Shown here: piece by piece, positions 2,313-46,425 of the stretch
Position numbering within the stretch: the stretch's first letter is position 1
How the letters are laid out: every line of letters starts with the position of its first letter
Assembly (NCBI GenBank): GCA_004321885.1
Contig: SCQK01000007.1
Coordinates: forward strand, 32,001 to 96,000
Length of the DNA: 64,000 nucleotides
Direction of reading: 5' to 3'
Origin: Patescibacteria group bacterium
GTDB lineage: Bacteria; Patescibacteriota; Patescibacteriia; Magasanikbacterales; GWA2-37-8
Notes under the pieces: generated by a model
Seen by the model: the letters and a program-made list of their open reading frames with translations, nothing else
Database searches by the model: none
Told to the model about the DNA's origin: nothing
Made by a program: the position numbers and the translations under genes

Positions 2313-3116
2313 TTAGAAACTCTGCGCCAATACCTTCCGTACTTCATCAACCAACTCCGAGGCGCTGTAATTAAATCCGAACTTTTTCCAGAGCGCGTCG
2401 CCGGCCGCGCCATTTGCGTAAAGCCCGGCGCCGGCGGCGAGTAGCGGCTCGTTTTTTGCCAATAGTCCCACGATGAGTCCGGAGAGCACATCGCCAGTTC
2501 CGCCTTTGGTCATTCCTTGGTTGCCGATAACATTACACCAAACCTTGCCATTTTGGCAAACATAGCTTTGCCAGCCTTTTAGTACGATGACGCCGGGATA
2601 TTTTTTGGAAATCAGCCGCGCGTTTTGGGCGGTCGCTTTTTTCTTAAACATTGCCTGAAATTCTCCGGCATGCGGGGCAAGCACGCAATTTTTGTGCAGC
2701 AATTTCAAATCCACCACGCGTAAAGCGCCGGCGTCCAGCACAATTTTCTTTTCCGGAAAAGCGCGCAAAATTCCATTGACCAATTTTTTTGTTTTCTCGT
2801 TTGGCATCAGCCCGGGCCCCAGCAGTATCGCATCACTGTTCCACACTGTCATCCCGACTGAGTCGGGATCCCTTTCTTCAACACGAATAAACTCCGCCAA
2901 CCCCTCGCGCAATTTTTTTATCAACGCAAAATTTTCTTTACTCGCATACACATACACCAAATCAACTAACTTGGCCGCCATCGTCGCGCACAAAATTAGA
3001 GAGCCGTGATATTTTTCCGAGCCGGCGGCAATCAAAACAATCCCGTTCTCGCCCTTGCGGCTCTTTCGCGGCGGCTGGTACAATTTTTTCAACCAGTTTT
3101 TATCTATCTTAATCAT
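2313..3116 (-). CDS. nnr: ADP-dependent NAD(P)H-hydrate dehydratase (YjeF C-terminal domain). An in-frame palindromic element gives the insert RDPDSVGMT.
   Basis: GENGIVLIAAGSEKYHGS, APHAGEF and GGTGDVLSG motifs. The element cccgactgagtcggg lies at 2853-2867 inside the CDS. Confidence 0.8.
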   Translation of the reverse strand: MIKIDKNWLKKLYQPPRKSRKGENGIVLIAAGSEKYHGSLILCATMAAKLVDLVYVYASKENFALIKKLREGLAEFIRVEERDPDSVGMTVWNSDAILLGPGLMPNEKTKKLVNGILRAFPEKKIVLDAGALRVVDLKLLHKNCVLAPHAGEFQAMFKKKATAQNARLISKKYPGVIVLKGWQSYVCQNGKVWCNVIGNQGMTKGGTGDVLSGLIVGLLAKNEPLLAAGAGLYANGAAGDALWKKFGFNYSASELVDEVRKVLAQSF

Positions 3117-3122
3117 AACACA

Positions 3123-3155
3123 TTGTCATTCCGGCCCAAGAGCCGGAATCCAGTC
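3123..3155. repeat. Hairpin repeat of the TGTCATTCC..GGAATCC family (intergenic).
   Basis: The sequence cattgtcattccggcccaagagccggaatcc is a perfect stem-loop. Confidence 0.7.
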
Positions 3156-4248
3156 AATTTATTTTTCTCACAACTCCCTTCTCCGCGTCCACCTCCACCA
3201 TATCGCCGTCTTTGAAAACCTGCGTGGCGATTTTGGTGCCGATGACGCAGGGAATGCCGAGTTCGCGCGACAGAACCGCCGCGTGCGACAACACGCCTCC
3301 CTCGTCCGTTACTACTGCCGCGCTGTTTTTCACTATTTCCATCAGTTGAGGATTGGTAGAGCTGGCAACCAGAATATAATTATTTATTGCGATTTTTCCG
3401 GTGTTGTTCTCCAAAAGCAGAACCTTGCCTGCGGCTTTCCCGGCGCAGGCCGGATACCCTTTAATCAACTTCGGCGCTTCTTTTATCTTAAAAAATTCAT
3501 CGTCAATTTTTTTTACCATCGCCGGATTTGAAATAATAAGTTCGCGCTCGCCCCGCTCTACAAATAAATAAAAAAATCCGTTGCGCCGTTTATTCAGCTC
3601 ATTCAGTTCGCCCGCGCTCAATCGCTCTTTATCTAAAAATTTTTTCATTTCCGCGACAGAAAGCAAAGCCAGCAAATCGCCGCTAAACTTCTTTCGCCGC
3701 CCCACATTATTCGCCGCGTCCGCCAGCATTTTTTCTATTTCAGGATAAAATTGAGCCATTTTTTCGCGGTTACGACTAATAGTTTTTATATATTTCGGCA
3801 GGGCCTTTTCGTTATTCCCGACAAAACGCCAAAAACAATTGATAATGCCGATAGCGGCCATAAAATTCGGATACTGCGCGGTCAACGCTTTAAGAAATTT
3901 TTCCGGCCGTGAAGAAATATATCGCCTGTGCTTCAAAATTTCGTTTTGGCATCTGGCAAAAATTCTTTCTGCGGGTTCAAAAGCCATTTTAGTTAATTTG
4001 TCAAAATTCTTTTGCGCAAATTTTTTGGTGCGGTTGATTACTTTCTGCTCATCATACATGGAATGCCAAAAATTCACGCGCCCCTTGCCCGCCACGGCGC
4101 CATACGATATTTTTATCTGCTTTCTTAACAGCTTCGTGTAACCAAGCCCAACGGCGCTTAATGAAAACAACGACATGCATCTTTGAGTGGCAGGCCTCAA
4201 TTTATGCTTTTGAATCAATCTTTTTAGTTGGCCAAAATCAACGGCCAT
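3154..4248 (-). CDS. PEP-utilizing enzyme mobile (swivel phosphohistidine) domain protein. It has no ATP-grasp domain. Paralog 1 of 3.
   Basis: C-terminal motif AAVVTDEGGVLSHAAVLSRELGIPCVIGTK..DGDMVEVDAEKGVV, which matches the PEP-utilizers swivel domain. Confidence 0.65.
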   Translation of the reverse strand: MAVDFGQLKRLIQKHKLRPATQRCMSLFSLSAVGLGYTKLLRKQIKISYGAVAGKGRVNFWHSMYDEQKVINRTKKFAQKNFDKLTKMAFEPAERIFARCQNEILKHRRYISSRPEKFLKALTAQYPNFMAAIGIINCFWRFVGNNEKALPKYIKTISRNREKMAQFYPEIEKMLADAANNVGRRKKFSGDLLALLSVAEMKKFLDKERLSAGELNELNKRRNGFFYLFVERGERELIISNPAMVKKIDDEFFKIKEAPKLIKGYPACAGKAAGKVLLLENNTGKIAINNYILVASSTNPQLMEIVKNSAAVVTDEGGVLSHAAVLSRELGIPCVIGTKIATQVFKDGDMVEVDAEKGVVRKIN

Positions 4249-4278
4249 ATGCCGATAATATACACCACCCTGCTAAAT

Positions 4279-4307
4279 TTGACAAAAACGCGAATTTGTG
4301 CTATAAA
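4279..4307 (+). promoter_or_regulatory. Sigma70-like promoter (TTGACA, 17 bp spacer, TATAAA, with an extended -10 TG) upstream of the high-GC phosphatase gene.
   Basis: ttgacaaaaacgcgaatttgtgctataaa. This is nearly identical in architecture to the promoters at 20513 and 57328. Confidence 0.5.
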
Positions 4308-4552
4308 AAACTGCTTGTTTTGTGTGAATGAAACACCACGGGCTTACGCCCGGGGAACTGCGTTAGAATATTAGCCAATCTTGGCTAACTTTCCCTAAAC
4401 AAGAGCACTTTGAAAAGGGAAAAGTACTCTTGAAAAGCATTTTGATTGTCATTCTTGCCCGTGAGCAGGAATCCAGTCAGGATGCTTTTCAGGAGGATAG
4501 GAACCCCGATTAGTCCGGCAAGGAGCCGGACACCACTGACAAGGAGAGAGAA

Positions 4553-5149
4553 GTGAAGACAATCATCGTTGTGAGGCATCCCGAGAAGGACGGAGACAAG
4601 ATCACGGCACTCGGTGCCATGCAGGCCTTCGCGACCGCGCTGGCGCTCGGCGCCATGTTCCCGAAGATTACCCAGATCCTGTGGTCGGGCGCGAACCGCG
4701 CCTGGCAGGCAGCGATGGTGACCTTGGCCGCGCTCGGTGGCGATGGCCGCTGGCTCAAAGAGAGCCGCGGCTTCCACTTCGAACCGACATTCACGAACGT
4801 CTACGGCAAGGACGCCCCCGCGGCGTTCAAGGCCGAGACGGCCGCCATCAAGGAGCGACTCGGCAAGTCCGCCCTCACCGTCGCCGACGCATTGGAACAC
4901 AGCGAGTACGCGCGCCAGGGCCGAGTGGTTATGACGGACACACTCTTCAAGCTCGCCAGCACGATGAAGGACGACGACGTGGTGCTGGCCGTCAGTCACT
5001 CGCCGTGGTTGGAGCTCGCCGCACTCGACCCGGCGACCATGCCCTACGGCATCGGCGAGGCCGAAGCTGTGGCCTACCACATAGAGGACAGCAAAATCCT
5101 GACCATAGAGCGGGTGTTGTCCTCGCTGGCCGGCAAGGCCAACTGCTGA
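4553..5149 (+). CDS. Histidine phosphatase superfamily protein (phosphoglycerate mutase / SixA-like). It lies in a high-GC patch at about 4380-5260 that is probably horizontally acquired.
   Basis: IIVVRHPEKDGDKITALGAMQA resembles the RHG catalytic motif region. GC content is far above the flanking sequence. The patch splits a tandem paralog family. Confidence 0.55.
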   Translation: MKTIIVVRHPEKDGDKITALGAMQAFATALALGAMFPKITQILWSGANRAWQAAMVTLAALGGDGRWLKESRGFHFEPTFTNVYGKDAPAAFKAETAAIKERLGKSALTVADALEHSEYARQGRVVMTDTLFKLASTMKDDDVVLAVSHSPWLELAALDPATMPYGIGEAEAVAYHIEDSKILTIERVLSSLAGKANC

Positions 5150-5268
5150 CAGCGGACGTCTCCCTCCCTCGCCGGCCCCGCCCGGCGGCCCATTTCCCAA
5201 AACTCAAAGTGCAACGCGCCCACGGTTTCCCGCGGGCGCTTTGTTTTTTTAAAAAATTATCTATCAAT

Positions 5269-5721
5269 TCAGCTTAATCCCAAAGCCGGCTTCATTTTGC
5301 TTACGTCCACTTCCAATTTTTCAACACGCTCTTCCAGTTTCGTGGTCGCGTGGACGGTTAAAGTAAGCTCTTGGTCTTTCTTTTCCATCAGACCAACAAT
5401 CTTATCCAGTGAATTTGATAACTTGCCAATGTCATTCTTGGTCGCCATTGTCTCTTCCATACGTTCCAACCGTTCCGTATGGTCAACAACCGTGCGCGCG
5501 ATTAAATCAAGCCGCTCCTCATGATCCGCGAGTTTTTTATCAATCTTATCAAACCTCTCATCGTGCTCTTTGAATTTGGCATCATGCTCAATGAATTTTT
5601 GGTTAATTTTTCCAAAATTTCCATCATGCTCAACGAGTTTCTGATTCACTTTTTCAAGATTGCCTCCGAGCTCGTTGAGTTTTTGCATTATAGCGTCGGT
5701 CATATGGTCGTATTGTATCAT
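5269..5721 (-). CDS. Coiled-coil repeat protein of unknown function, with internal repeats (KxxEHDxxFxKINQKFIEHD).
   Basis: A 150 aa ORF. The nucleotide-level tandem repeats of about 45 bp at 5520-5660 encode repeated heptad-rich units. Confidence 0.45.
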   Translation of the reverse strand: MIQYDHMTDAIMQKLNELGGNLEKVNQKLVEHDGNFGKINQKFIEHDAKFKEHDERFDKIDKKLADHEERLDLIARTVVDHTERLERMEETMATKNDIGKLSNSLDKIVGLMEKKDQELTLTVHATTKLEERVEKLEVDVSKMKPALGLS

Positions 5722-5782
5722 TCACCAAAAACCGTGTCAAACTTGTCATGCTGAACTTGTTTCAGCATCTCCGTTCGCGGTT

Positions 5783-7258
5783 TCATATTTTTCTCACAAT
5801 CCCCTTCTCCGCGTCCACTTCCACCATATCCCCGTCTTTGAAAATCTTTGTAGCTATTTTTGTAGCAATAACGCACGGCTTTTTCATCTCGCGAGCCACA
5901 ATGGCCGCGTGACAAATGAGACCGCCTTCGTCCGTCACAATGGCGGCCGCCCTTTTCATCGCCGGCACCATATCCGGATCAGTCATGGAACTGACCAAAA
6001 TTTCTCCTTCCAACAAATTCTGCGCTTGGTATTCCATTTTTATCACTCTCACCCTGCCTTTTACTTTTCCGCGATAAGCCACAGCTCCTTTCACTTCCTT
6101 AACTTCTTCATGTCCAAGTCCCAGAAACTTATCAACAAATTTTCTCGCCTTATCTCCGCTGCCATCAACTATTTTTCCCCTACTAAGAAGGCAATAATAA
6201 TAGCCGAACCGTTCATTGATTACTTTTTTCAACCGCGGTCTACTTTTTTCATTCATCAGATAATCTCCCATCTGACGATAATTTAACTGCCGCAAAGATA
6301 TAACATCCATTCCAACTCGGTCGGCAATCGCCTGAAACAAAGGATAGGACCAAAGAATCGCGCGGCTCATTGCCGCCTTTCTGCCGTCGTTTGATATATT
6401 GATTCCTCGTAAATATTCTAAGATATTAAGTTCGGCGCGCGAAAATTTGTATTTTTTTAACAATTTTTGTCTTGCCCGCGAAATTTCACCCGGACCATTC
6501 AAAAGATTTTTCAATTCAACGGAAAAATTATTGTCTGAAAATGTTTTTCTAACCCCGGCGATAGCCAGGTTCAAATTTAAGGGTTGAACATGGTGGCTGA
6601 CCGGAACCCAATCAAAATTTCTAACGTAATTTTCAATTTGGCAATACAAAGCGGGGTGAAAACGTCCCAACTGTTCTATAACTTCTTCGTCGGTTTTTTT
6701 GAACAAAGATTCTAATTCATGTTGACGAACTTTCTTGGCAATATTTAATAAAGCAATCCGCTCGCGATTGTATTCTCCGAGCTCGGTGGAAGAAATCAAA
6801 ATTGACATGTCATCGGCCGGTACCGCGCACTTTAGTATGGTCGGCAATAGTGCACTAATCGCGCCATCCATAATTTTCGGAAAAGGATATAGCCCGAATT
6901 TTGCCGACAATAGCGCGACAAATTTATTAAGCAACCGGCTCAAAACATTTTTGTCAGCTTGGAAGCAATCCCGGAAACGAACTGAATGACAAAACTTAAG
7001 GAGTAGGGAGTCGGCACCTTTAATTACCGCGAGAATACGTGGAATTGAAGTCTTTTTTAACAGCCGCGCAATCCAATTCTTCGCGGCCAAATCATTTTTT
7101 GGATGATAATAAATTGATGTCAACTGCTTGTCCGTAATTGACACCCATCCGTCTAACTTTAAACCAACTCTCAATCCTTGCTCGCGAAAGCCCTTAACAA
7201 AAATGCTCATGTAAAAAGGCATTCTAATTCCGGCGGACATGAATTTTTTCCACTGCAT
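5783..7258 (-). CDS. PEP-utilizing enzyme mobile domain protein, paralog 2 of 3.
   Basis: C-terminus AAIVTDEGGLICHAAIVAREMKKPCVIATKIATKIFKDGDMVEVDAEKGIV. The 3' end shares nucleotide similarity with 3180-3260. Confidence 0.65.
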   Translation of the reverse strand: MQWKKFMSAGIRMPFYMSIFVKGFREQGLRVGLKLDGWVSITDKQLTSIYYHPKNDLAAKNWIARLLKKTSIPRILAVIKGADSLLLKFCHSVRFRDCFQADKNVLSRLLNKFVALLSAKFGLYPFPKIMDGAISALLPTILKCAVPADDMSILISSTELGEYNRERIALLNIAKKVRQHELESLFKKTDEEVIEQLGRFHPALYCQIENYVRNFDWVPVSHHVQPLNLNLAIAGVRKTFSDNNFSVELKNLLNGPGEISRARQKLLKKYKFSRAELNILEYLRGINISNDGRKAAMSRAILWSYPLFQAIADRVGMDVISLRQLNYRQMGDYLMNEKSRPRLKKVINERFGYYYCLLSRGKIVDGSGDKARKFVDKFLGLGHEEVKEVKGAVAYRGKVKGRVRVIKMEYQAQNLLEGEILVSSMTDPDMVPAMKRAAAIVTDEGGLICHAAIVAREMKKPCVIATKIATKIFKDGDMVEVDAEKGIVRKI

Positions 7259-8200: not shown

Positions 8201-8517
8201 GTTTTTGCAACAAAAAACCGCCTTTACAGACGGCTTTTTGTTAAAAAATCATTGACTTCACAAATGTGACTCCGCCAGAGGCGGATTGATAACTGACACA
8301 AAATTTATTTCGCTTGCGCTCTTAAATTTTGGTCGTTATCAAAAAAACGCACAATGTCTATTCCTTCATCTTTGGCGACTGTTACCGCGATGGATTCCTG
8401 CTTGCGCAGGAATGACAGCGTGGACAATTTGCCAATCGACAGAGTATCACAGTGTTTCCACTGAGTATCTCCAGAAAGGAGGTGATCCATCCACAGCTTC
8501 CGCTACGGATGCCTTGT

Positions 8518-9285
8518 TCATGTTTCTCCCTATGTCGCCATAAGGCACGGACTATATCATCACCCGTTTTGAGAGAATTTTTTGCTTAGCCGGATGCCAT
8601 GAGCCGATAACTCGGATAAAATCTTGGAGCGAATTCGCTCTCACGAATATGCGCCAATAATCCGGGTCAACTCGCTTGCTGGGATTGTGAACTTTCCCGC
8701 AAACGATGCTCATTTTTTTCAACATCTGTTTAAGCTTGCATATCTTGGCTTTATCCTTTTGCACCAATTGTATATACAGCCGCGCTGTAATGTGGTGCGG
8801 AACGCCGCCTTCGGCGTCAAAGAATCCTCGAATATACGCTTTTTGTTCTTCGCGACTTTTTAGCCGCAATGGATCAAAACGGAAATCCAGAAATGACGCT
8901 AATGTTTCAAGAACATGGACATCTCTGTCTTTTCCTTCGCGATACATCCAAGACGAATAGCCAATCTTTTTTAGAAGTCGCTTTAGCGTTTTTAGCCAAC
9001 CGGTTCCCTTTTGTGAAAAACGGAATCTGCGGTTACTGCTAAATGTGCCGTCGTGCAATGCTCCTAAAAGATATGCTTTTATTTCTCCCCTTAACGGGGT
9101 TCGGCGTGTAGTCTCTGAGGGGTCAATCCCGACTAAGTCGGGACGACTTCCCTGCTGATTGACTGCACCGAAAACTTTTTCACTCATACTGCTATAGTGT
9201 AGCACAAGTAGTTTCGGATACACAGTGTTTCCAGCAAACAGCCGAATTTGTTTTTAGCGATTACTCGCTAAGAGTCGCAATTTGT
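8518..9285 (-). mobile_element. Insertion 1 in the 16S gene (near the 3' end, between CCTTGTT and ACGACTT). It carries a LAGLIDADG homing-endonuclease ORF and is probably a self-splicing intron.
   Basis: The exon sequence is interrupted and resumes at about 9285. The ORF 8552-9223 lies inside. Confidence 0.7.
8552..9223 (-). CDS. LAGLIDADG homing endonuclease, intron-encoded.
   Basis: Motifs YLLGALHDGTF and IRGFFDAEGG. An in-frame palindrome (SRPDLVGID) lies near the N-terminus. Confidence 0.75.
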   Translation of the reverse strand: MYPKLLVLHYSSMSEKVFGAVNQQGSRPDLVGIDPSETTRRTPLRGEIKAYLLGALHDGTFSSNRRFRFSQKGTGWLKTLKRLLKKIGYSSWMYREGKDRDVHVLETLASFLDFRFDPLRLKSREEQKAYIRGFFDAEGGVPHHITARLYIQLVQKDKAKICKLKQMLKKMSIVCGKVHNPSKRVDPDYWRIFVRANSLQDFIRVIGSWHPAKQKILSKRVMI

Positions 9286-9696
9286 TTACGACTTTACCCT
9301 AGTCACTGACCCTGCCTTAATTCCCCGAAGGAAACTTTGGGCATTGCCAGCTCCCGTGGTATGACGGGCGGTGAGTACAAGACCCGAGAACGTATTCAAC
9401 GCGCCGTGGCTGATGCGCGTTTACTAGCGATTCCGACTTCATGAAGGCGAGTTGCAGCCTTCAATCTGAACTGGGGCCGGTTTTGATGGGATTGGCTCCG
9501 CCTCGCGGCTTAGCGACCCATTGTACCGGCCATTGTAGCATGTGTGTAGCCCTGGACGTAAGAGCCATGCTGATTTGACGTCGTCCACCCCTTCCTCCCG
9601 GCCCGCTGTTCGCTTGCTTTCGCAAACGCCCAAAGGGCCGGGCGGTCTCGCGTGAATATTTAACACGCGACGTGGGTTGCGCTCGTTTCCCAACTT

Positions 9697-9985
9697 AATG
9701 GTACACCTCCGGATTATTATCTTCACGCAGACTATTCCTTCACCCTTTGCCGACTAAGTCGGCATGAGGGGCTGGCGTATTAGCGGAACTATAAATTCAA
9801 TCACATCCATGAATTCCGCTCTTGGCAAAATGCCTTAGTCGTTACAGGGTCAACCCACGATTTTATTTAAAATCGGGGCGACTTCCCTCGGAGTTCCCAA
9901 ATTCATATGGTATATTTTACCATTTTTACATGAATTTGATAATGAGGTTCTCCGATATGAGCCAGATTTCTCATATCTCTTTTCA
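9697..9985 (-). mobile_element. Insertion 2 in the 16S gene, about 290 bp with no ORF, interrupting the conserved region around position 1070-1100.
   Basis: GGGTTGCGCTCGTT..CCCAACTTAA is followed by about 290 bp of non-rRNA sequence before ATGTTCACGGCACGAGCTGACG resumes. It shares a cgacttccctcgg motif with the other two insertions. Confidence 0.55.
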
Positions 9986-10118
9986 GAGATAGGCCGCGAG
10001 ATGTTCACGGCACGAGCTGACGGCAACCATGCAGCACCTATCTAGCACCCTCGAAGGCGGCGGCCGTTTCCGGCAGCTTGCAGCTAGTAGTTGAGCCCAG
10101 GTAAGGTTCCTCGTTTGT

Positions 10119-10163
<45 letters not shown>

Positions 10164-10290
10164 TATTCCTTTGAGTTTTAACCTTGCGGCCGTACTCCCC
10201 AGGCGGCGCACTTAACGCGTTAGCTTTTTTGAACGGCACTGACAGGGTCGATACTGCCAATACCTAGTGCGCATAGTTTAGGGCGTGGAC

Positions 10291-14930: not shown

Positions 14931-14962
14931 ATATGGATTCCGGCTCTGCGGCCGGAATGACA
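14931..14962. repeat. GGAATGACA-family hairpin (intergenic).
   Basis: ggattccggctctgcggccggaatgacag. Confidence 0.6.
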
Positions 14963-15016
14963 GACGGAATTTGAGAGCGTGACTATCTTATTACAAAGCC
15001 GCTTGTTTGTCAACTT

Positions 15017-18660: not shown

Positions 18661-18671
18661 ACAATCGTTCA

Positions 18672-18712: not shown

Positions 18713-18770
18713 AATCACCCTTGACATCCCGCGCCAAGCGTAATATAATGAAAAATTCTGATTGACTTTA

Positions 18771-35754: not shown

Positions 35755-36231
35755 ATGACATTTCGTCGTCGCATCGGTATCGTCTTCGTCTGCATCCTGC
35801 TCGGGTTCGTTGTTCTGTTCGTGGCAGGACCCGGTTTCATGGTGGTCGACAACAGGGACATCCGAGCCGCCGATGATGTCTCAGCGGAGGACATGGCCGC
35901 TTGGCTGGGAGATGCTGGCTGGCAGGCGGATGCTACAAAACATTACTATCTCATCAACGTATCGGGAGTTGTGCATTCTCTCTCGCCGCGATCGCTCAAA
36001 TACCTCGAGGCGCGCATCACAAATACCAAGGCGAATCTGCGCGTGTACGCCGTCACACCGTTATTGGGTTTTGTCGTTGAACCGTTTCGACTCGGAACGG
36101 TGAGCCTCCTGTTTCTGATAGAGACACCGGAAGAGCGAGACCTAGCGGACATCATGCGGCAGTTCAGCTTCTGTGTACGTCAAAGTGATCAGAGCGGGCT
36201 ATGTATGCCCGTGTTGTCGGGGACACGTTGA
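35755..36231 (+). CDS. Membrane hypothetical protein within the island.
   Basis: N-terminal TM IGIVFVCILLGFVVLFVAG. Confidence 0.35.
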   Translation: MTFRRRIGIVFVCILLGFVVLFVAGPGFMVVDNRDIRAADDVSAEDMAAWLGDAGWQADATKHYYLINVSGVVHSLSPRSLKYLEARITNTKANLRVYAVTPLLGFVVEPFRLGTVSLLFLIETPEERDLADIMRQFSFCVRQSDQSGLCMPVLSGTR

Positions 36232-37672: not shown

Positions 37673-37847
37673 AGGAGAGGGGTTAAGAGTAACTCCACCT
37701 ATGGTCGCAGCGCCCGAGCTGCTTTACAACCAAAAGAGAAACCACTATAATTGAAGTGTTTTTATGTTACTACATGCGGATAACACGCTGGGAGTCGGAC
37801 AACCGGAAGGAAACAACCGGGTACGAAGGACGTCCCAGAATCCCCGC

Positions 37848-39455
37848 ATGCGCGCAGTTGCAAAAATTTTTCTTCTTCTGGCCGGCTGGCTTATCGTCGT
37901 TTCCATTGTTTCCAATTCGTTTGACAACGACCTGGGCTGGCATTTGCGCTTTGGCCAAGACGCCCTAAGCGGCGATTTTCAGTACACCGACAGTTATACC
38001 TGGGGCTTTGCCGGGCGCGAGTGGGTAAACCACGAATGGGGGGCCGATATTTTATTTTGGATTATTTACAGCCGCGTCGGCTACTTCGCCCTGGCGCTTC
38101 TCATCGGCACGGTAATCTGGGCGGCATTTGTGCTGGCGCCTCTTATTTTTGCGCGTTTCAGTTTAGGCGCTCTCGCGATTTCGCTGCTCATGGCCCTGGC
38201 CGCGGGCTTTACTTTTGTCACGCGCGTCTCCATGGCGGCGCCGCTGTTTTTTGTTTTGCTCTGGTTTTCGCTGGAAAGAAAAAAATATTTTTTCCTGTGG
38301 CCGATTTTATTCTGGGCGTGGTCTTTTCTGCATGGTAGTTGGATACTGGGATTTATTTTAATAAACATTTATTTGGTTGGAGAAATAATTCCCTCCACTA
38401 TTAGAGCCTGCCCTGAACTTGTTTCAGGGGGAGGGACAAAAGGTGGAGTTGGCAAGAAGCTCTGCTGGCAAATCATTTCCGCGGCCGCGATTCTTCTCAA
38501 TCCGTACGGCATAAAACTCTGGCGCGAGGTGCTCTCCTATTTTATATACAGCGACTACAAGCGGCTGATTATTGAATGGCTGCCAAGCTACAGTTACCCC
38601 ATTCGCTGGTGGCCCATAATTATCGCGGGAGCGGCCGGCGTTTTGCTTTACCTGGGGTGGAAAAACAAAAAAGCGTCTTTGACCCACGTATTGTTATTTT
38701 TGGCCATATTTTTAGCCGCCATGCAATACAAGCGCAACAATATTTTGCTGACGCTCGTTTGCGCGCCGATTTTCGCAATAGCTTTGGAAGAAACAAAGAA
38801 GAAACTACTCTCAATTGCCATTCCGAACCCGAAGGGTGAGGAATCCCTTCGCCTTACGAGTAAGTTTAAGGGATTCCTCGCTCCGCTCGGAATGACAACG
38901 GCGATTGTCCTCTTCGCCGTCTCAGCCGTTTATTACCTTCCCCGCCTGCGGGCGCAAAATGACGTCTGGCAGGACAAAAATTTTTTGACCCGGCACGGCT
39001 TTCCGGTCAAAGCCGTTGATTTTGTAAAAAAACTACCGGCCGGAGCGAAAATTTTCAACGAATTCGGCTGGGGCGGTTTTTTTATCTGGCAAACGCCGCA
39101 AGTAAAAATGTATTTTGACGGACGGGGCGCGGCCACCTGGCGCGACGCCAATGGCGAATTCATGCTTAAAAAATATCTGCGCTACCTTGGCGAAAAAAAA
39201 CAGTTGCCCGAATTAAGCAAAACTCCGGCTGAATATATTTTGCTGGAAAAAAACAGGCTGGCCCTGCCGCCGCCCGGCTGGAGCGACAAACTGTTTTTCA
39301 AAAAAGAAAACTTGGCAAAAATAATGGAGCGCAAGCCGCCGTTGCTTGAAACCGACCTGACGAAAAGCAGTGATTGGAAACTGATTTACAGCGACGAGAT
39401 GACGAACATTTGGAAAAGAACCGCGGACATGAATTCCGGCTCAAGCCCGGAATGA
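37848..39455 (+). CDS. Polytopic membrane protein, possibly a GT-C-fold glycosyltransferase. It contains two in-frame palindromic insertions.
   Basis: More than 10 predicted TM segments. The elements at 38395-38445 (..RACPELVSGGGTKGGVG..) and 38866-38905 (..PKGEESLRLTSKFKGF..) are translated in frame. Confidence 0.5.
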   Translation: MRAVAKIFLLLAGWLIVVSIVSNSFDNDLGWHLRFGQDALSGDFQYTDSYTWGFAGREWVNHEWGADILFWIIYSRVGYFALALLIGTVIWAAFVLAPLIFARFSLGALAISLLMALAAGFTFVTRVSMAAPLFFVLLWFSLERKKYFFLWPILFWAWSFLHGSWILGFILINIYLVGEIIPSTIRACPELVSGGGTKGGVGKKLCWQIISAAAILLNPYGIKLWREVLSYFIYSDYKRLIIEWLPSYSYPIRWWPIIIAGAAGVLLYLGWKNKKASLTHVLLFLAIFLAAMQYKRNNILLTLVCAPIFAIALEETKKKLLSIAIPNPKGEESLRLTSKFKGFLAPLGMTTAIVLFAVSAVYYLPRLRAQNDVWQDKNFLTRHGFPVKAVDFVKKLPAGAKIFNEFGWGGFFIWQTPQVKMYFDGRGAATWRDANGEFMLKKYLRYLGEKKQLPELSKTPAEYILLEKNRLALPPPGWSDKLFFKKENLAKIMERKPPLLETDLTKSSDWKLIYSDEMTNIWKRTADMNSGSSPE

Positions 39456-39464
39456 CAATCGCGG

Positions 39465-40262
39465 CTAACCCCTGGCCAAAGTGAGCCAGTAAATTTTTTG
39501 CGCGCCGGCCGCTTTCAGCACGCGCGCGCATTCCTGCATGGTGGCGCCGGTGGTGTAGACATCATCAACCAGCAGAACGTATGCGGGCGCCGGAGCCGGT
39601 CCCTTCCACGCGAACGCGCCGGCCACGTTTTGCGTCCTTTCCTCTTTGCTTAACCTGGCTTGATGAGGAGTGTAGCGGGTGCGAACTAATACCCCCTCCT
39701 CTATCCTCCCCCTAATAGGGGGAGGGTTCTGTGTGAGTCCCTCCCCTTTTAGAGCCTGCCCTGAACTTGTTTCAGGGGGAGGGATACAGGGAGGGGTATT
39801 CAAAGAGTCCAAAAAAATTTTTGCCAACACTTTCGCCTGGTTAAAGCCGCGCTCGCGTTCGCGGCGCGGGTGCAGGGGAACTGGAAGAACTGACCAGCAT
39901 ATTGGCTCCACAGCCCCGACTAAGTCGGGGACTATGGAGCCAGCCACGCTAATTATCGTTCCGACCGAGCAGAGCGAACGGAGGAACCCCTTTTTCTCAC
40001 TTATTATTTTTTCAAAAACATTTTTAATGTCTTTGGCAAAGCCGTATTTGAATTGTTTTATCAGCCTGCCCACGGGCCCGTTTTCTTCATAAACAAAAAA
40101 AGACGCACCTCGGTCCAGGTGCGCGTCCGCGGGCCAAAGCGCGCACTCATTTTGGTGTTTGGCCCGGCAAAGCTTGCACCACCACTCCCCTTCCACGCCG
40201 CAATCCACGCACGAGACCGGGAAAAGAATATCTTTGAACCAGCGCGCGGAGGCGGCCAGCAT
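39465..40262 (-). CDS. comF: ComF-family protein (double zinc ribbon plus phosphoribosyltransferase domain), with two in-frame palindromic-element insertions.
   Basis: N-terminal CVDCG..C..C and C-terminal PRTase motif VLLVDDVYTTGATM. The elements at 39700-39805 and 39904-39944 are translated. Confidence 0.75.
   Translation of the reverse strand: MLAASARWFKDILFPVSCVDCGVEGEWWCKLCRAKHQNECALWPADAHLDRGASFFVYEENGPVGRLIKQFKYGFAKDIKNVFEKIISEKKGFLRSLCSVGTIISVAGSIVPDLVGAVEPICWSVLPVPLHPRRERERGFNQAKVLAKIFLDSLNTPPCIPPPETSSGQALKGEGLTQNPPPIRGRIEEGVLVRTRYTPHQARLSKEERTQNVAGAFAWKGPAPAPAYVLLVDDVYTTGATMQECARVLKAAGAQKIYWLTLARG
39904..39944. repeat. Copy of the 43 bp CCCCGACTAAGTCGGGG element inside comF.
   Basis: Identical to 20823-20864. 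Confidence 0.8.
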
Positions 40263-40875: not shown

Positions 40876-42747
40876 TCACTGATTTTCTTTTTCAAATTCT
40901 TTTTTGGCCGCTTCAATGTCCAGCAACTGCTGGGGATTGGTGGTCACAATCTGGTCTTCGGTGTAGGAGGCCACCACTTTAATGGCCGCGTGCTTGTTGC
41001 CGGCGAAAAAAATCCCCTCACCCACAGCGCTTTCCAAAAGCAGATATTTTTCGCCCTCGGTTAAAATAAACACTTTTTGCACCAAATCAATGGCCGCCGG
41101 CGACTGACGCAACAAAAGTTGCAGGGCCGAGTTCGTCACAATCGCCTGACCGTATTGCGAGCGCAAAAAATCATTCACATCCTGCGTGATGGTGGTAACG
41201 CCCAAAAAATATTTGCGGCAGCGCTTGACCAGGGCGAAAATAAAGCGAGCGCTGTCCTCGTGCTGCATCAGCCACCAGGCCTCGTCTATGGCCAGAATCC
41301 TTTTCTTGCGCTCCGAACGCACAACGTTCCAAATATAGTTGACGATGGCGTAAATGGCCAGGGGGCGCAACTCGTCTTCCAAATCGCGCACCGAAAAAAC
41401 CACCAGCTGATTTTTCACGTCCACGTTGGTGGGCGAATTAAACAGACCGCTAAACGTGCCCTCGGTAAATTTTTTCAATTTCAAGACCAGCTCGTTTGAC
41501 CCTTCCATGCCCTCCAAAATTTCCTCCAAATCCTGCATAATGGGCGGCGTCACCTTGGTCAAATCCGCGTCCGGCGTGATATCTTTTTTGGCGTAAGTTT
41601 CTATGAGCGCGCGGTCAATGATGGAATCCTGCTCGGTGGTAAGCCCGCCCAGCATGATGCGCAACAGCCCCTTCACGGTAATGACCGCCCCGCGGATAAT
41701 ATCATCCACGGAAATTTCCTGACCCACGGGCCGCGGCAAATCAAAGGGGTTCACCTTGCTTTCCGAAGATAAAGAAATATTTATATAGGTGCCGCCCACG
41801 GCATCGCACAAATGCTTGTATTCCATTTCCGGGTCAATCACGATAATGTCCGTGCCCATCATCATGGTGCGCAAAATTTCCAGCTTGATGGCATAACTCT
41901 TGCCGGCGCCGGAAGTGGCGAACACCACCATATTGGCGTTTTGCAAAGAAAAGCGGTCAAACAAAATCAGGCTATTGTTGTGTCGGTTGATGCCGTACAA
42001 GATACCGTCATCCGAGGTGAGCTCGGCGGAAATAAACGGAAAACTGGCCGCGATGGGGCTGGAGTTCATGTTGAAAGCGACCGCGATTTCATCGTTGCAT
42101 AAGGGCAGGGTGGAATTAAAACCCTGCTCGGACTGATAAAAAACCTTGCGCGAATAAATGAGCTTGCCGCCAAAAACATTTTCAATGTCTTCGCAGGTCT
42201 GGTCCAGCTCTTCTTTGGTTTTGGCGTAAACCGTAACATAAAACGCAAACTGAAAAAAATGCTCGGTGCCCTGGGTGAGATTGTCGCGCAGTTCTTCTAT
42301 GTCGCGCAGGGCGGTTTCGCGAATCGGGTCGCGCGGCGCGCCTTTTTCCGCGTCGGCGTTTATCTGCGCTTCCAGGGCGCCGACTTTATTGCGCAACTGC
42401 TTCAAAATTATAGCTGACTTGACCGGATAAAAAAACATGCCGATGTCCATGGTCACGGACATATTAAGAATGGGCGAACTCCAGCCCACCGAAATATAGC
42501 GCGGATAGGTGATGACAAAAATGGTGCGGCAAAAAATATCGCCCAGCTTCACGAAGCCGGTCTCCACGTTGAAAGCCGAGGGCGCGATGATGTCCTTAAT
42601 GGAAACCGTGCCCTCGCGATAAGCCCGCTCTTCGGCCAAAATCATGGTCTCGGCCGCGGCTTTCTTTTTTACCGCCTCTTCTTCTTTGCGCAGGCGGCTC
42701 TCGTCGGGCTGGCCGGTTGGTTTTACGATTTTTGGTGCAAAAGCCAT
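40876..42747 (-). CDS. virB4: VirB4/TrbE-family type IV secretion ATPase.
   Basis: Walker A VVFATSGAGKSY, with DUF87-like architecture. Confidence 0.75.
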   Translation of the reverse strand: MAFAPKIVKPTGQPDESRLRKEEEAVKKKAAAETMILAEERAYREGTVSIKDIIAPSAFNVETGFVKLGDIFCRTIFVITYPRYISVGWSSPILNMSVTMDIGMFFYPVKSAIILKQLRNKVGALEAQINADAEKGAPRDPIRETALRDIEELRDNLTQGTEHFFQFAFYVTVYAKTKEELDQTCEDIENVFGGKLIYSRKVFYQSEQGFNSTLPLCNDEIAVAFNMNSSPIAASFPFISAELTSDDGILYGINRHNNSLILFDRFSLQNANMVVFATSGAGKSYAIKLEILRTMMMGTDIIVIDPEMEYKHLCDAVGGTYINISLSSESKVNPFDLPRPVGQEISVDDIIRGAVITVKGLLRIMLGGLTTEQDSIIDRALIETYAKKDITPDADLTKVTPPIMQDLEEILEGMEGSNELVLKLKKFTEGTFSGLFNSPTNVDVKNQLVVFSVRDLEDELRPLAIYAIVNYIWNVVRSERKKRILAIDEAWWLMQHEDSARFIFALVKRCRKYFLGVTTITQDVNDFLRSQYGQAIVTNSALQLLLRQSPAAIDLVQKVFILTEGEKYLLLESAVGEGIFFAGNKHAAIKVVASYTEDQIVTTNPQQLLDIEAAKKEFEKENQ

Positions 42748-43441: not shown

Positions 43442-43476
43442 CCCTCCCCTTGCGAAGGGGAGGGTTAGGGAGGGGT
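43442..43476. repeat. GGGGAGGG-family palindromic element (intergenic).
   Basis: ccctccccttgcgaaggggagggttagggagggg. Confidence 0.6.
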
Positions 43477-43477
43477 C

Positions 43478-43906
43478 TTACTCGGGTTTGTAATATCCCC
43501 CGGTATTCACAATCAAAGACAAATCCCTGATTCTGTTATACGACAATCGCGGCATGGCCTTGGCCGCTTCTTCTATTTTTTTCTCCGCGTTCGCTTCGCG
43601 CAATTTTTTCAAATCGGCGTTGGAATATTTTTTCTGCCAGATGCGCAGGCTGGGCCGGCGCGCGGTGCCGGCGATATTTAGGATAAAATAATGAAACGGC
43701 TGGCCGTTGATTTTGACAAAAGCGAAGGTCAGCGACAAGCCGCCGAAAAGCGCGGTGAGGAAAATAAACAAAGCCATGTCGGCCAATTTGAAAGACAAAA
43801 ATATCAACAGACTGCCTGCGAGCAAAATGATAAACTGCCTGGTGGTGATGGGCCCAAAAATTTTGTCTTCCACGTCTATGAATTGCGGCACCGTGAATTG
43901 ATCCAT
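43478..43906 (-). CDS. PrgI/VirB3-like small membrane protein of conjugative type IV secretion systems.
   Basis: MDQFTVPQFIDVEDKIFGPITTRQFIILLAG followed by two TM helices resembles PrgI-family proteins. Confidence 0.55.
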   Translation of the reverse strand: MDQFTVPQFIDVEDKIFGPITTRQFIILLAGSLLIFLSFKLADMALFIFLTALFGGLSLTFAFVKINGQPFHYFILNIAGTARRPSLRIWQKKYSNADLKKLREANAEKKIEEAAKAMPRLSYNRIRDLSLIVNTGGYYKPE

Positions 43907-43907
43907 A

Positions 43908-45038
43908 CTATAATTCTTTCTCCATCGCCACTATCGCTTTTATTTCTTCTATCTTTATCCCGCCTTTTTCCGTCGCTGTCTGCGCCAGGGTTTTTCTGTC
44001 GGCCAACGCGCCGCACACCGCGTCCATGTATTCCAAATAAAGAGGGCTCTGTTTCCAGGCGGCCTGCGCGTCCATATATAATAGGTAGGATTCGTCGCGC
44101 AGGTTGATGAATTTTTGTTTCAGGCGCTGGCCCGCCTCGGCGCAGTTTTGCGCCAAACGGCGAAAATCCGTCAGACTAATATATTTTACCTCATCTATGG
44201 GTCCCATTTCAACAGGCGGAGCGGAAATATCCCGCATGCTCTGTTTTACCGGCGCGCTTCCTAACTTGAACGACGAGGATTGTGTAGCCCCCTCCCCTCT
44301 TAGGGAAACCGTCATCTTCCCCTCCCCTTGATAAGGGGAGGGCTCGCCACCACACCAAAATTTTTGGTGTGGTGGCGAGGGAGGGGCAGTCGCAACCGGC
44401 TTCTCTTCAGGCGCCAAAAGCGCGTGCAAAAGCTCGTTGGCTTTTTTCTTGCTCTCGGGCACAGTTGGTCCCCCCCCTCCTTTAGAAGGAGGGGGCAAGG
44501 GGGTGGTCTTGACCTTTTCTGAATGTTCAAACGGGTTAAACGGAGTTGCTGTCGCCGGCAACAATACCTCTTCGCACGCTCCCGCCGCTTTCTCGGCCTG
44601 ATTGGCCGTAAAACCCATGCCACCGTCTTTTATGGAACGCAATAAAATATTTTTCGTTTCTTCGGGCGAGCGCACGTCTTTGAGGCGCAACTGAATAATA
44701 CTGCGCAAGCGATTGATAAAGTTGGGCGGCACTGGAAAATTTATTTTTTTGAGCGCCTGGTCCACCTGGCTTAGGCGCGGCTCGCTCAATTTCGGCGCGT
44801 CGCCCTTGGCCGGCGCCGGCTCTTCCAAAGGCGACCGAAAATCATTATTCGCTTTCTTCGTTCCCATCATCGGCGCCGTGGGATACGGCGGTCGTTTTGG
44901 CGCTACTTTCACTCCCTCCCCTTTTAGGGGAGGGGCAGGGAGTGGGGTATTGTGCGCCGCTTGTCTTACCTGCGACAAAGGCATGCGCACAAAACTGCCG
45001 TCGGCCTTTTTTACCAAAATTGTTGGTTCGTTTGGCAT
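43908..45038 (-). CDS. Proline-rich hypothetical protein carrying at least four in-frame palindromic-element insertions.
   Basis: Translated elements: PLPAPPLKGEGVKV, PLPPPSKGGGGPT and SPPHQKFWCGGEPSPYQGEG. The ORF extends to 45101 through a further element. Confidence 0.45.
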   Translation of the reverse strand: MPNEPTILVKKADGSFVRMPLSQVRQAAHNTPLPAPPLKGEGVKVAPKRPPYPTAPMMGTKKANNDFRSPLEEPAPAKGDAPKLSEPRLSQVDQALKKINFPVPPNFINRLRSIIQLRLKDVRSPEETKNILLRSIKDGGMGFTANQAEKAAGACEEVLLPATATPFNPFEHSEKVKTTPLPPPSKGGGGPTVPESKKKANELLHALLAPEEKPVATAPPSPPHQKFWCGGEPSPYQGEGKMTVSLRGEGATQSSSFKLGSAPVKQSMRDISAPPVEMGPIDEVKYISLTDFRRLAQNCAEAGQRLKQKFINLRDESYLLYMDAQAAWKQSPLYLEYMDAVCGALADRKTLAQTATEKGGIKIEEIKAIVAMEKEL

Positions 45039-45093
45039 ATTATTTACCCCTGCCTCCCTCCCCCTTAAATAAAGGGGGGGACAGGAGGGGGTA

Positions 45094-46425
45094 TTATTCA
45101 CTAACTAATTTTAAGTCTTTCGCCACCTGCGCGGCCAAGGATTCCACGCTGTCAAATTTTTTGGGCAGGCGCAAATAACGTTCGGTGCGCGCTTCTATTT
45201 TTTTTCCATACAAATCGCCCGCAAAATTCAAAACATGAACTTCCAGGCAGTCTTTTTTTGTTAAAGAATTATATCCATAATATAGCAAGCCGGAATACCC
45301 CTTCCCCTGCCCCTCCCCTAAAAGGGGAGGGTGGCTATCGGTGGTTCCTCCCCTTTTTAGGGGGAGGACAAAGGAGGGGGTATTCGCAATGAAAGCGACG
45401 GAGCACGTATACAATCCCCTGGGCAAATTTTTGGCCAGCGCCACGTCCAAGTTGGCCGTGTGAATCCCTACTTTATCCCCTTGTCCATAGCCGGGCAAAA
45501 CCGCGCCGGCCACCACGCGCGAACGGTGTAAAAACACAATTCTGGTTACGGCCGCCGCCAGCGCCGCCGCTCCCAAAATTTGCGTGGCCGATAACGCGTT
45601 GCCATTTAAATAATAATCCAAAATAATGGCGGACACGGGCCAGGACAGCTCGCACAAAGTCGCCACCGAAGCGGTGATTTTTTTCAGGCCGAAATAGTAC
45701 AAAAACATGGCCGCGGCTCCGGATGTAAAAACTATAATGATTAAAGTCGTCCACTGGGCCGCGCCCACCGACGGCAGAGAGGAAAAATAGCGCGCCGCCG
45801 GAATCGCCATAATCAAAACCGTGAGCCCAAAGCGCAAAGCCGCCAGCAGGCCATAGCTGATATTTTTTAGGGAATATTTTCCAAAGGTGGTGGCCGAACC
45901 CCAGGCAAACGCGGCCAGCATGGAAAAACCGGCGGCAATGGGAACAGCCGACATCGCGCTAGAAACCGCGAACGGATTTTTGAAAGTAACAAAATATCCC
46001 GCGACCAGCGCGAGCGGGGCGTAAAAATAAAACGAGCGCGGAAATCGCTCGCGTAAAAATATGGCGGCCAAGATAATCGCGAAAATCGGCTGAAATTTTT
46101 GCAAAAGAATCACTACGGAAATATCTTTGAAGCCCGTGGCAAACAAGGCCTTGGTGATAAAAATCGTGCCCAAAGCCCCGCCAAACAAGGCCACCCAAAA
46201 AATTGCGACCCACTCTTTGCGTTTTATCAGTTTTAACTGGGCGCGGTAAACAACCAAAAACGGCAACAAGGCGACAAAACCGAGCAGGTGCTCCAAAAAC
46301 ACCAGCAAGGCCGGTTGCAAGGAATACAAACGGGGTCGCAAAAAAGTGCCGTCCAAACTCCACAGCAGAGCGGCCAGCGCCACGGCCATTGCCCCGATAA
46401 TCACGCTATTTTTTTTCATAATCAT
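45094..46425 (-). CDS. Putative fusion of an EamA/DMT-family 10-TM transporter with a C-terminal riboflavin kinase domain. The kinase domain carries an in-frame palindromic insertion.
   Basis: About 300 aa of paired EamA-like TM repeats, then GQGDKVGIHTANL...GLYTCSV..EVHVLNFAGDLYGKKIEARTERYLR (RFK motifs). The element at 45298-45385 encodes ..TTDSHPPLLGEGQGKGYSGL... Confidence 0.55.
   Translation of the reverse strand: MIMKKNSVIIGAMAVALAALLWSLDGTFLRPRLYSLQPALLVFLEHLLGFVALLPFLVVYRAQLKLIKRKEWVAIFWVALFGGALGTIFITKALFATGFKDISVVILLQKFQPIFAIILAAIFLRERFPRSFYFYAPLALVAGYFVTFKNPFAVSSAMSAVPIAAGFSMLAAFAWGSATTFGKYSLKNISYGLLAALRFGLTVLIMAIPAARYFSSLPSVGAAQWTTLIIIVFTSGAAAMFLYYFGLKKITASVATLCELSWPVSAIILDYYLNGNALSATQILGAAALAAAVTRIVFLHRSRVVAGAVLPGYGQGDKVGIHTANLDVALAKNLPRGLYTCSVAFIANTPSFVLPLKRGGTTDSHPPLLGEGQGKGYSGLLYYGYNSLTKKDCLEVHVLNFAGDLYGKKIEARTERYLRLPKKFDSVESLAAQVAKDLKLVSE

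Follow-up and report, generated by a model that had tools for sequence, protein, structure and literature searches.

Around 30 copies of short, hairpin-forming repeats lie within 47 kb of a Patescibacteria genome, and over half of these are in-frame parts of intact housekeeping genes, either internal or terminal. The DNA analysed here is a 64,000-nt stretch (hereafter the window, whose numbering gives all positions; strands are given where one is assigned) of contig SCQK01000007.1 (positions 32,001 to 96,000; assembly GCA_004321885.1) from a bacterium of the Patescibacteria, or Candidate Phyla Radiation (CPR). It holds some 50 genes, packed closely and for the most part encoded on the minus strand, together with a tRNA-Ser gene and a 16S rRNA gene split by a group I intron and other insertions, and the elements, ~20–50 nt each and up to ~100 nt where nested, are confined to its first ~47 kb. 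About 60% of the copies overlap confirmed coding sequence. We consider it probable (roughly 0.78) that these hairpins are small selfish or semi-domesticated repeats, of the same kind as repetitive extragenic palindromic (REP) sequences, Ssn-related motifs (SRMs) and small dispersed repeats, that have multiplied in this genome and behave in coding sequence like Rickettsia palindromic elements (RPEs). An earlier note on the same DNA had pointed to recurrent families of short palindromes, many of them in frame inside intact genes in an RPE-like manner; family counts and an excess of hairpins over shuffled sequence bear out the first point, and open reading frames through inserts that orthologs lack bear out the second.

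The family A palindrome (CCCGACTAAGTCGGG, with up to two mismatches) occurs at 7 sites, giving 13 strand-matches against 0.07 expected, and family C occurs at 2 sites against 0.09; the core of family B (CCCTCCCC..GGGGAGGG) has six exact matches against 0 expected, and ~12 copies when variants are allowed. Perfect hairpins with stems of at least 8 number 46, compared with 11.1 ± 3.2 in dinucleotide shuffles (~4-fold), and those with stems of at least 10 number 14, compared with 0.6 (~23-fold). Aligning the copies together with their flanks defined the real boundaries of the units. The long form of family A (A-long) is 42 nt, with identical copies at 20824–20865 and 39903–39944. The full unit of family B is a double hairpin, TACCCCTCCC-3 nt-CCCTCCCCTT-3 nt-AAGGGGAGGG-3 nt-GGGAGGGGTA, which is complete at 15016–15064 and elsewhere usually represented by the inner hairpin and one G-rich tail. 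Family C is a perfect palindrome of 31 or 37 nt, with stems of 15 bp (GCCCCCACACCAAAA) and 18 bp (CTCGCCACCACACCAAAA). Family D had been described in the earlier note as TGTCATTCC..GGAATGACA, a form with no match in the window because two strands had been joined; its real, asymmetric unit is TGTCATTCC-stem-loop-GGAATCCA(G/T), and a relaxed pattern (GTCATYC-N4-34-GRATYC) has 13 matches against 0.42 expected. A search for orientation bias found D copies in both orientations relative to host gene and strand. A further unit of 47 nt (E-long) has two copies (38390–38436 and 39738–39784) that differ by 2 mismatches, read in different frames because their host genes are on opposite strands. Cores and outer arms are exchanged between families: E-long is a B-type jacket round the core CCCTGAACTTGTTTCAGGG, a near-identical core, GCTGAACTTGTTTCAGC, lies at 5745–5772 in a GTCAT..ATC jacket, and the A core is found both in a GTCAT-type jacket (at 638, 2847 and 19831) and in the GGCTCCA/TGGAGCC jacket of A-long. 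The E-long pair and the elements at 4447–4475, 8389–8418, 15429–15479 (in SMC), 38840–38897, 46487–46515 and 47243–47270 are additions to the earlier note.

All representative elements fold as DNA hairpins, with single-unit z-scores of −5.9 to −10.8, as had been anticipated. Among 11 family B copies, 98% of stem positions are paired and 7 of the 10 stem pairs have changed on both sides, a result reached by 0 of 500 shuffles, indicating that the palindromic symmetry of B is maintained despite sequence drift. The G-rich arm and tail of B (for example, GGGGAGGGTTAGGGTGGGG) contain four G-runs (27043–27063, 43457–43477 and 15042–15064, and loci L002–L121 from other genomes) and resemble a G-quadruplex-type motif, so the element could alternate between hairpin and quadruplex. 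Rfam at gathering thresholds returned only 16S rRNA, group I intron and tRNA, with no family covering the hairpins of the window. Each element consensus is open in 3 to 6 of the six reading frames. Both A-long copies are nevertheless read in one and the same frame (AGSIVPDLVGAVEP) though 3 are open, both family C copies in the same frame (PPHQKFWCGG) though 6 are open, and all three A-core copies inside genes as PD(L/S)VG; with so few copies, this may reflect chance or a preference of frame or orientation.

By Pfam, the host proteins are Carb_kinase/Nnr, SMC, DHH-DHHA1 (NrnA), VanW, Fpg, ComF and an EamA–flavokinase fusion; Fpg, ComF and NrnA have their nearest full-length homologs among proteins of Parcubacteria or Magasanikbacteria type, at 40–73% identity. 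An uninterrupted frame spans the elements of Nnr, SMC, DHH/NrnA, VanW, Fpg, the membrane protein 37764–39455, ComF, ORF 43908–45101 and the EamA–flavokinase protein. Indeed, none of the copies inside confirmed genes disrupts the frame or introduces a stop, and wherever insert boundaries can be defined the lengths (33, 36 and 42 nt) are exact multiples of three.

In Fpg, a perfect 31-nt family C palindrome (23802–23832) and 2 further nucleotides make up an insert of exactly 11 aa or 33 nt, GPPHQKFWCGG, between ..VAG and GHNLP, with predicted junction peptides VVAGGPPHQK and FWCGGGHNLPVINPDTLPTAYTR. The insert, already noted as PPHQKFWCGG, is found only in the window protein and is absent from all 18 full-length Patescibacteria-type homologs aligned, and Geobacillus MutM aligns on both sides of the unmatched stretch. 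The AlphaFold model of Fpg (mean predicted local distance difference test score (pLDDT) of 84) places residues 91–107 in a loop with pLDDT below 50 after strand E87–90, beside a core that is folded with confidence, consistent with an insert in a surface loop, although low pLDDT is expected without alignment depth and is therefore not proof of one.

Similar evidence comes from NrnA and ComF. Two nested family D elements (19101–19163, −) inside the DHH/NrnA gene encode DGFRLLGRNDRKGGGNDN, and the closest relative (locus L124; 73% amino acid and 81% DNA identity) has a clean 36-nt, 12-codon gap opposite the GGATTCCCGCGATGGATTCCGGCTCCTGGGCCGGAA of the window, in agreement with the hairpin insert claimed earlier; its NrnA–clpP spacer is also ~29 nt shorter and lacks the hairpin at 19831–19863. 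ComF has two inserts relative to 19 homologs, as had been proposed. One is the peptide AGSIVPDLVGAVEP, encoded by A-long (39903–39944), and the other is a ~25-aa insertion (NTPPCIPPPETSSGQALKGEGLTQNPPPIRGR) encoded by a composite of a B hairpin, E-long (39738–39784) and a B tail (39690–39798 in all); a predicted junction peptide is AGSIVPDLVGAVEPICWSVLPVPLHPR. The other A-long copy (20824–20865) provides the last 14 residues of a VanW-domain protein, again AGSIVPDLVGAVEP, with the stop directly after. As this 42-nt copy is identical in two unrelated genes, VanW and ComF, it supports the recent mobility that the earlier note had read from the pair, which it had correctly called identical while giving the length as 43 bp.

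Two elements contribute to SMC. A long family D element (15429–15479, −) encodes SFPRNLSLAPNREQESS in the head domain, where 46 residues separate two well-aligned blocks that are 9 residues apart in Bacillus subtilis SMC, amounting to a ~37-aa insertion that includes this peptide. The complete 49-nt B double hairpin (15016–15064) supplies the last ~8 residues (DTPPAPSP) and, in its loop, the TGA stop; the alignment with B. subtilis SMC stops 8 residues before the C terminus, and those 8 are the B-encoded ones. In the flavokinase domain of 45094–46425, a composite B element with outer arms round two inner hairpins (45296–45385) coincides with ~20 residues more than in human riboflavin kinase, as the earlier claim of an insert there implied. 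The host ORF fuses an EamA-type transporter (a 10-transmembrane drug/metabolite family) to this C-terminal domain and looks like an unusual transporter–riboflavin kinase fusion.

In the membrane protein 37764–39455, the frame runs open, as claimed, across E-long (38390–38436, +; encoding IPSTIRACPELVSGGGTKG), a family D element to which a 38-nt hairpin is fused (GTCATTCCGAGCGGAGCGAGGAATCC; 38840–38897, −) and a family D hairpin (39429–39457, −) that forms the last 8 codons and the TGA stop. The proline-rich ORF397 (43908–45101) belongs to a widespread family with 1,689 homologs, which place its true start at M22 (45038), and its elements are located in variable Pro-rich linkers: a composite of a B remnant, a B hairpin (44320–44342) and a family C palindrome (44343–44379) at 44286–44388, a B-like hairpin with tail at 44470–44505 (encoding TTPLPPPSKGGGGPT) in a variable linker, and a B hairpin with tail at 44911–44947 (encoding TPLPAPPLKGEGVKV) in the N-terminal variable region. 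The first B copy that had been placed in this ORF, a B-like element (45045–45089), lies instead between the EamA–flavokinase stop (45094) and the homolog-supported start. Finally, an SRM-type hairpin with an A-like core (2847–2872, +) encodes RDPDSVGMT inside Nnr (Carb_kinase; 2313–3116, minus strand). Here the frame is open, as had been noted for its PDLVG-type peptide, and insertion is possible but unproven.

Several copies have evidently landed in one another, hairpin loops and spacers being the favoured sites. In NrnA, the inner D unit lies within the outer one, and in ORF397 the C palindrome lies exactly within the 3 nt that separate a B hairpin from its tail. Beyond the window, among 119 Fpg homologs of Patescibacteria type, ~20 contain private inserts of at least 7 aa at several internal positions, and the two that we examined at the DNA level are B-type hairpins located elsewhere in the gene than the window insert: one (P0036) reads ..CCTCACCCCGGCCCTCTCCTTGCCAAGAAGAGGG.., and the other (P0049) is a hairpin of 70 nt whose folding energy is −54 kcal/mol. 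In-gene element insertion is therefore general in the clade. On another Parcubacteria contig (L123), an fpg gene with a 70-nt hairpin insert is directly preceded by a gene (111–350) for a single-domain GIY-YIG protein of 79 aa; this upstream gene has no GTCAT-type hairpin flanks, and NCBIfam gave no useful subfamily. Metagenome ORFs from a Hainich groundwater contig (L181) and from L242/L257 contain tandem D-type peptides, VIPANEPES..LDSRLRGNDNRGGGNDN, close to the NrnA insert RLLGRNDRKGGGNDN, and also the jacketed E-core peptide PWILNQVQDD; the same composite elements are therefore present inside genes of other groundwater organisms as well.

The same DNA families are present in intergenic DNA, coding sequence, intron and rRNA. 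Two SRM/NTS-type hairpins with an A core match the strict published SRM pattern: one at 638–670 (+; TGTCATTCC-CCCGACTTAGTCGGG-GGAATCCAT) and one in the DHH–clpP spacer (19831–19863, −). The first had been thought to supply terminal residues of RibE, a role that elements do have in SMC and VanW; it lies instead between the stop of 678–2264 and the real ribE start (M16, at 632), upstream of the canonical MFTGII with which this Lum_binding-domain protein begins. Family D hairpins are intergenic at 3123–3153 (+; between the Nnr start and the stop of 3154–4248), at 14932–14963 (−; upstream of the 122-aa ORF 14554–14922) and at 46487–46515 (+; GTCATTCCGAGCGGAGCGAGGAATCC), and the last element of the window (47243–47270, +) is a D copy at the start of the NYN-domain gene 46724–47248. 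Another (4447–4475, +) is inside ORF 4385–5200, of doubtful coding status (no Pfam match); the surrounding ~1 kb (4249–5268) consists only of overlapping ORFs on both strands, none with a Pfam match, and this is its one D hairpin. The SRM jacket (GTCAT..ATC) round the E core GCTGAACTTGTTTCAGC (5745–5772, +) is intergenic, between 5269–5721 and 5783–7258. Family B hairpins occur with a left tail in the DHH promoter region (18768–18804), where the flanking region does not align with that of L124, with a G-rich tail 1 nt beyond the stop of ORF 27065–28423 (27028–27063, +), and with a tail immediately after the stop of the PrgI-family gene 43478–43906 (43442–43477, +).

Three further copies are associated with the 16S rRNA gene. 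In the minus-strand sense, a family D hairpin (8389–8418, −) closely follows the group I intron on its 3′ side. An A core with SRM-like flanks (GTCGT-CCCGACTTAGTCGGG-ATTGAC; 9121–9149, −) forms a peripheral stem-loop of the intron RNA, its core (9127–9143) falling in a variable 20-nt stretch of the group I intron alignment; it had been counted as an in-frame insert of the homing endonuclease, a reading that is not supported, as the LAGLIDADG domain of the intron ORF begins only at residue 126. An A-like palindrome, GCCGACTAAGTCGGC (9746–9766), is inside a 298-nt insertion of the 16S rRNA gene. The gene itself (8528–12098, minus strand) spans at least 2.86 kb and includes the group I intron near its 3′ end (8528–9297) with a LAGLIDADG_3 ORF (8552–9223), a 36-nt expansion (~9590–9630), the 298-nt insertion (~9700–10000) and a further insertion with a LAGLIDADG_2 ORF (10336–11097). 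Its true 3′ exon is probably below 8528, because the 3′ end given by cmscan (9238) overlaps the intron.

The elements are no peculiarity of this lineage, family D having the architecture of the SRM/NTS class and family B occurring across phyla. The inserts as such are absent from the orthologs compared for Fpg, ComF, DHH, SMC and flavokinase, as lineage-specific inserts should be, and the Fpg insert is modelled in a loop. A scan for the B core (20 specified bases, one genome per species) found at least 120 stretches, which among the matches listed include Nostoc, Pseudanabaena, Microcoleus, Cellvibrio, Alphaproteobacteria, Hyphomicrobiales, Bacteroidota, Nitrospinota, Turneriella and Patescibacteria. 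Among these matches, the flanks have everywhere the same oriented layout, hairpin + TTA + GGGTGGGGTAA; at these loci, most of them outside CPR, the element tends to lie between genes (open frames that span it have a median of 71 codons), and a few in-gene cases are convincing, among them two from Patescibacteria (L058 and L120). Viral contigs contain both families rarely, with B in 6 stretches and D in 5, and a metagenome scan for the 38-nt core of A-long had 0 matches.

For family D, the sequence TTGTCATTCCCGCGAAAGCGGGAATCCAG is present in an alphaproteobacterium, and the flanks are those of the Neisseria NTS, CGTCATTCC..GGAATCYRG. The NTS, CGTCATTCCCGCGMAVGCGGGAATCYRG, is a longer oriented form of dRS3 and has been generalised to SRMs, described in 2025 as targets of small GIY-YIG single-stranded DNA (ssDNA) nucleases; one such protein, SsnA, binds the NTS hairpin and cuts ssDNA upstream of it, and ssn genes are typically flanked by the motif (PMC11893778). 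That study mentions Patescibacteria 0 times. D copies in the window satisfy the oriented SRM layout, with an HGTCWY 5′ flank, a hairpin and an RNCYNB 3′ flank, and the strict, degenerate published pattern (HGTCWYN(0-2)YYVSBRHN(0-5)WNVSBRGN(0-2)RNCYNB) is matched by two copies, 638–670 and 19831–19863, against 0.18 expected in shuffles. In metagenomes, the D subtype has at least 134 copies, with C/T at −1 and A, G at +1, +2 of the flanks as in NTS; among the matches listed, 9 of the 91 copies with enough flank (~10%) are in long open frames, some of them plausible proteins. One metagenome contig (L142) has a 96-codon GIY-YIG ORF (YYVYILANKQNGTLYTGVTNDLVRRVNEHR...) flanked on both sides by six GTCAT..GGAATCC-type hairpins, two upstream and four exact D-subtype copies downstream, which, as judged from the DNA, is the published NTS–ssn–NTS arrangement. 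We tentatively suggest that the families with a GTCAT..GGAATCC jacket (D, and part of both A and E) may be recognised as ssDNA hairpins by a small Ssn-type GIY-YIG nuclease acting in trans from elsewhere in the genome. Families B, C and A-long have no partner enzyme that we could find: ORF clustering round B at 120 loci, among the matches listed, gave only generic families (for example, ABC ATPases) and no enriched partner.

In the interpretation that we favour, the elements would spread as DNA, through a single-stranded hairpin intermediate. Intergenic DNA is scarce in this genome, and the arms are C or G runs or otherwise free of stops and would leave most frames open; insertions into coding sequence would survive because of this combination of little spacer DNA and stop-free arms. 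Survival would further require a length that is a multiple of three, a loop that brings no stop, and a site in a surface loop, linker or terminus, and surviving copies would be read as peptides of 4–21 aa or would replace the last codons and the stop. Elements would also land in one another and in peripheral stems of structural RNAs.

Several observations weigh against this interpretation. Translation of the inserts, like the mechanism that mobilises the elements, is something that we infer. No Ssn/GIY-YIG protein, Y1 (RAYT/IS200) transposase or other plausible mobilising enzyme was found in the 64-kb window by Pfam on ~40 ORFs, tblastn with a Parcubacteria GIY-YIG protein or a motif regular expression; Pfam turned up only the large serine recombinase (36164–37672) and the two LAGLIDADG ORFs. 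No target-site duplication is definable at the elements, a 2-nt GG duplication at the Fpg site being possible but ambiguous and none being visible at the DHH site. The sole other sample containing this strain is 100% identical and offers no presence/absence contrast between close strains. Nnr has no extra length compared with its Thermotoga maritima or B. subtilis homologs, which is why insertion there is unproven. Only 2 of the ~14 D copies satisfy the strict SRM pattern, the GGCC-stem copies sharing the flanks and failing on stem letters alone. Finally, arms that differ in sequence yet are perfectly complementary would also fit a self-templated formation of palindromes.

Among the alternatives, the one that fares best, and that we still regard as unlikely, is that the hairpins persist chiefly because they serve the host as RNA or DNA, be it as terminators, as mRNA stabilisers or, like the Neisseria NTS, in Ssn-linked control of transformation or recombination, with their coding location incidental. 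Copies right at gene ends (SMC, 27065–28423 and PrgI) and in the DHH–clpP spacer would fit such a role, as would stems maintained through compensatory change, the modulation of Neisseria meningitidis transformation by NTS and SsnA (PMC11893778) and the presence of genes for ComF and a VirB4/TraG-like ATPase in the window. Yet no B or C copy precedes a T-run, all that a permissive scan for terminators picks out among the families is 3 copies (A/D), each with a weak tail, and more than half of the copies are inside genes, in either orientation relative to transcription; genuine-looking terminators exist separately at 18671–18704, 20778–20809 and 24187–24225. A host function would, moreover, be compatible with a selfish origin and no replacement for it.

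A slightly poorer prospect is that no element moves and that palindromes are made locally, by intrastrand template switching or foldback repair at short quasi-palindromes. This would account for copies of one family that differ in their arms while each is perfectly self-complementary, as with GCCCCCACACCAAAA and CTCGCCACCACACCAAAA of family C, for the compensatory changes in the B stems and for a window in which neither a target-site duplication nor a transposase was found. It cannot, however, yield identical 42-nt and near-identical 47-nt copies in unrelated genes, and it leaves unexplained the asymmetric, non-palindromic flanks (TGTCAT.. / ..CCAG, and the B tail TTAGGGTGGGGTAA) that are conserved across phyla. 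Local self-templating may contribute to keeping arms matched after insertion.

Far less credible is the idea that the inserts are untranslated, being removed from the mRNA or bypassed in the manner of the Magnusiomyces mitochondrial byp elements or the T4 gene 60 gap. Stable GC-rich hairpins within coding sequence are what such a process would offer, but the frame is kept without a stop in every copy inside confirmed genes, and the insert lengths contradict bypass or splicing because bypassed elements need not be multiples of three. Assembly artefacts or chimeric joins at palindromes can be dismissed almost entirely, since, although short-read contigs of the same strain break exactly at palindromes, an independent sample (SRR8426592) has 2,812 nt that are 100% identical in a contig running into the Fpg palindrome, reading frames are preserved and the same families are found in isolate genomes of other phyla. 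The two Logan contigs of that sample (L001 and L126), both 100% identical to the window, end at the palindromes in fpg (23831) and 5′ of ribE (~640), and such breaks in de Bruijn assemblies explain truncated protein calls, for example an Fpg fragment (P0001) that starts just past the insert.

Other features of the window merit description. Past 47270 there are zero hairpin-family elements, compared with ~30 in the first 47 kb; the remaining stretch (47300–64000) has a lower G+C content (0.39–0.48 over much of its length), very large ORFs that Pfam does not match (1,254, 1,089 and 615 aa), as well as a 121-aa ORF that is annotated Zn_ribbon_IS1595, and may be a recently acquired island that elements have yet to colonise. 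The large serine recombinase at 36164–37672 (Resolvase, Recombinase and Zn_ribbon_recom domains) is encoded in the most G+C-rich part of the window (0.586), near the VirB4/TraG-like ATPase (40876–42747) and the PrgI-family protein (43478–43906), a set of genes that points to a type IV secretion-like or conjugation module, or else to an integrated element. The neighbouring genes 3154–4248 and 5783–7258 have as their sole recognised domain the C-terminal mobile domain of PEP-utilising enzymes, and the final ~25 residues of their products are near-identical (KIATQVFKDGDMVEVDAEKGVVRKIN and KIATKIFKDGDMVEVDAEKGIVRKI).

About 10 of the ~50 genes in the window carry repeat-derived peptides, and about 1 in 6 Patescibacteria Fpg homologs has a private insert. 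For CPR proteomes, such inserts have consequences for alignments, for models of protein families and for the prediction of structures, and the elements explain in-gene breaks in short-read assemblies of these genomes. They provide a second, independent case of protein-coding palindromes, with selfish palindromes tolerated inside essential proteins, and the origin of new loops and termini is easier to test here because the units are far smaller than RPEs. The host range of NTS/SRM-like hairpins and, by inference, of Ssn nucleases is widened to CPR; these hairpins prove able to live in coding sequence, as opposed to their near-exclusion from genes in Neisseria; and the B element is conserved from cyanobacteria to CPR. 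A bolder extension, which we hold to be somewhat unlikely, is that streamlined CPR genomes are broadly colonised by cross-phylum hairpins of 20–50 nt (an Ssn/NTS-like family and the unnamed C-rich/G-rich B, with its putative G-quadruplex-capable tail), which would insert into protein loops, introns, rRNA and one another and be a major unrecognised source of lineage-specific loops and new C termini and perhaps of CPR rRNA expansion segments, with the Ssn–hairpin system tied to a DNA-uptake lifestyle.

Set beside known systems, the B and C copies fall outside the definition of an intrinsic terminator as a GC-rich hairpin followed by a T-run. The small dispersed repeats of cyanobacteria, a subject of Elhai et al. 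in 2008, are reportedly mobile, hairpin-capable units of 21–27 nt that land in genes and in one another. The core and tail of family B are themselves abundant in Nostoc and other cyanobacteria; the difference is that B in the sampled non-CPR loci is mostly intergenic. REP sequences and REPINs are likewise hairpin repeats, short and abundant, in which the stem base and flank are conserved and which are arranged in clusters and mosaics, but they are extragenic by definition and thought to be moved in trans by a single-copy RAYT acting on ssDNA hairpins (PMC3116915), whereas the elements described here overlap coding sequence in most cases, have no GTAG-type motif and are accompanied by no Y1_Tnp among the ~40 window ORFs scanned. 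[quoted passage not shown]

The closest likeness in sequence is to NTS, dRS3 and SRMs, with which the D copies and the jacketed A and E copies share the layout (C/T)GTCATTCC - variable stem-loop - GGAATC(C)(A/G)G; the differences are that about half of the D copies here are in coding sequence, whereas in N. meningitidis just 2% of NTS copies are intragenic (PMC11893778), that the window has no ssn and that most D stems (GGCC...) fail the strict pattern. In behaviour, the likeness is to RPEs, which are ~100–150 bp and in frame in functional genes (Ogata et al. 2000, as summarised in PMC10969869): in both cases, palindromes of several families lie in frame in unrelated functional housekeeping genes (here Fpg, DHH, ComF, SMC and flavokinase) of a reduced-genome host and add peptide segments that the fold tolerates. 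We claim no kinship of sequence. RPE units have a conserved peptide of ~30–50 aa, whereas the units here are 26–49 nt, with only nested composites reaching 90–109 nt; they are often nested, also supply C termini and stops, and reside in Patescibacteria. As far as we checked, no literature links palindromic elements, REP sequences or MITEs to CPR/Patescibacteria, in line with the earlier view that this behaviour is not commonly described there. The novelty is thus at the level of behaviour and host, and less at the level of the elements, family D having the SRM/NTS layout and family B being found in many phyla.

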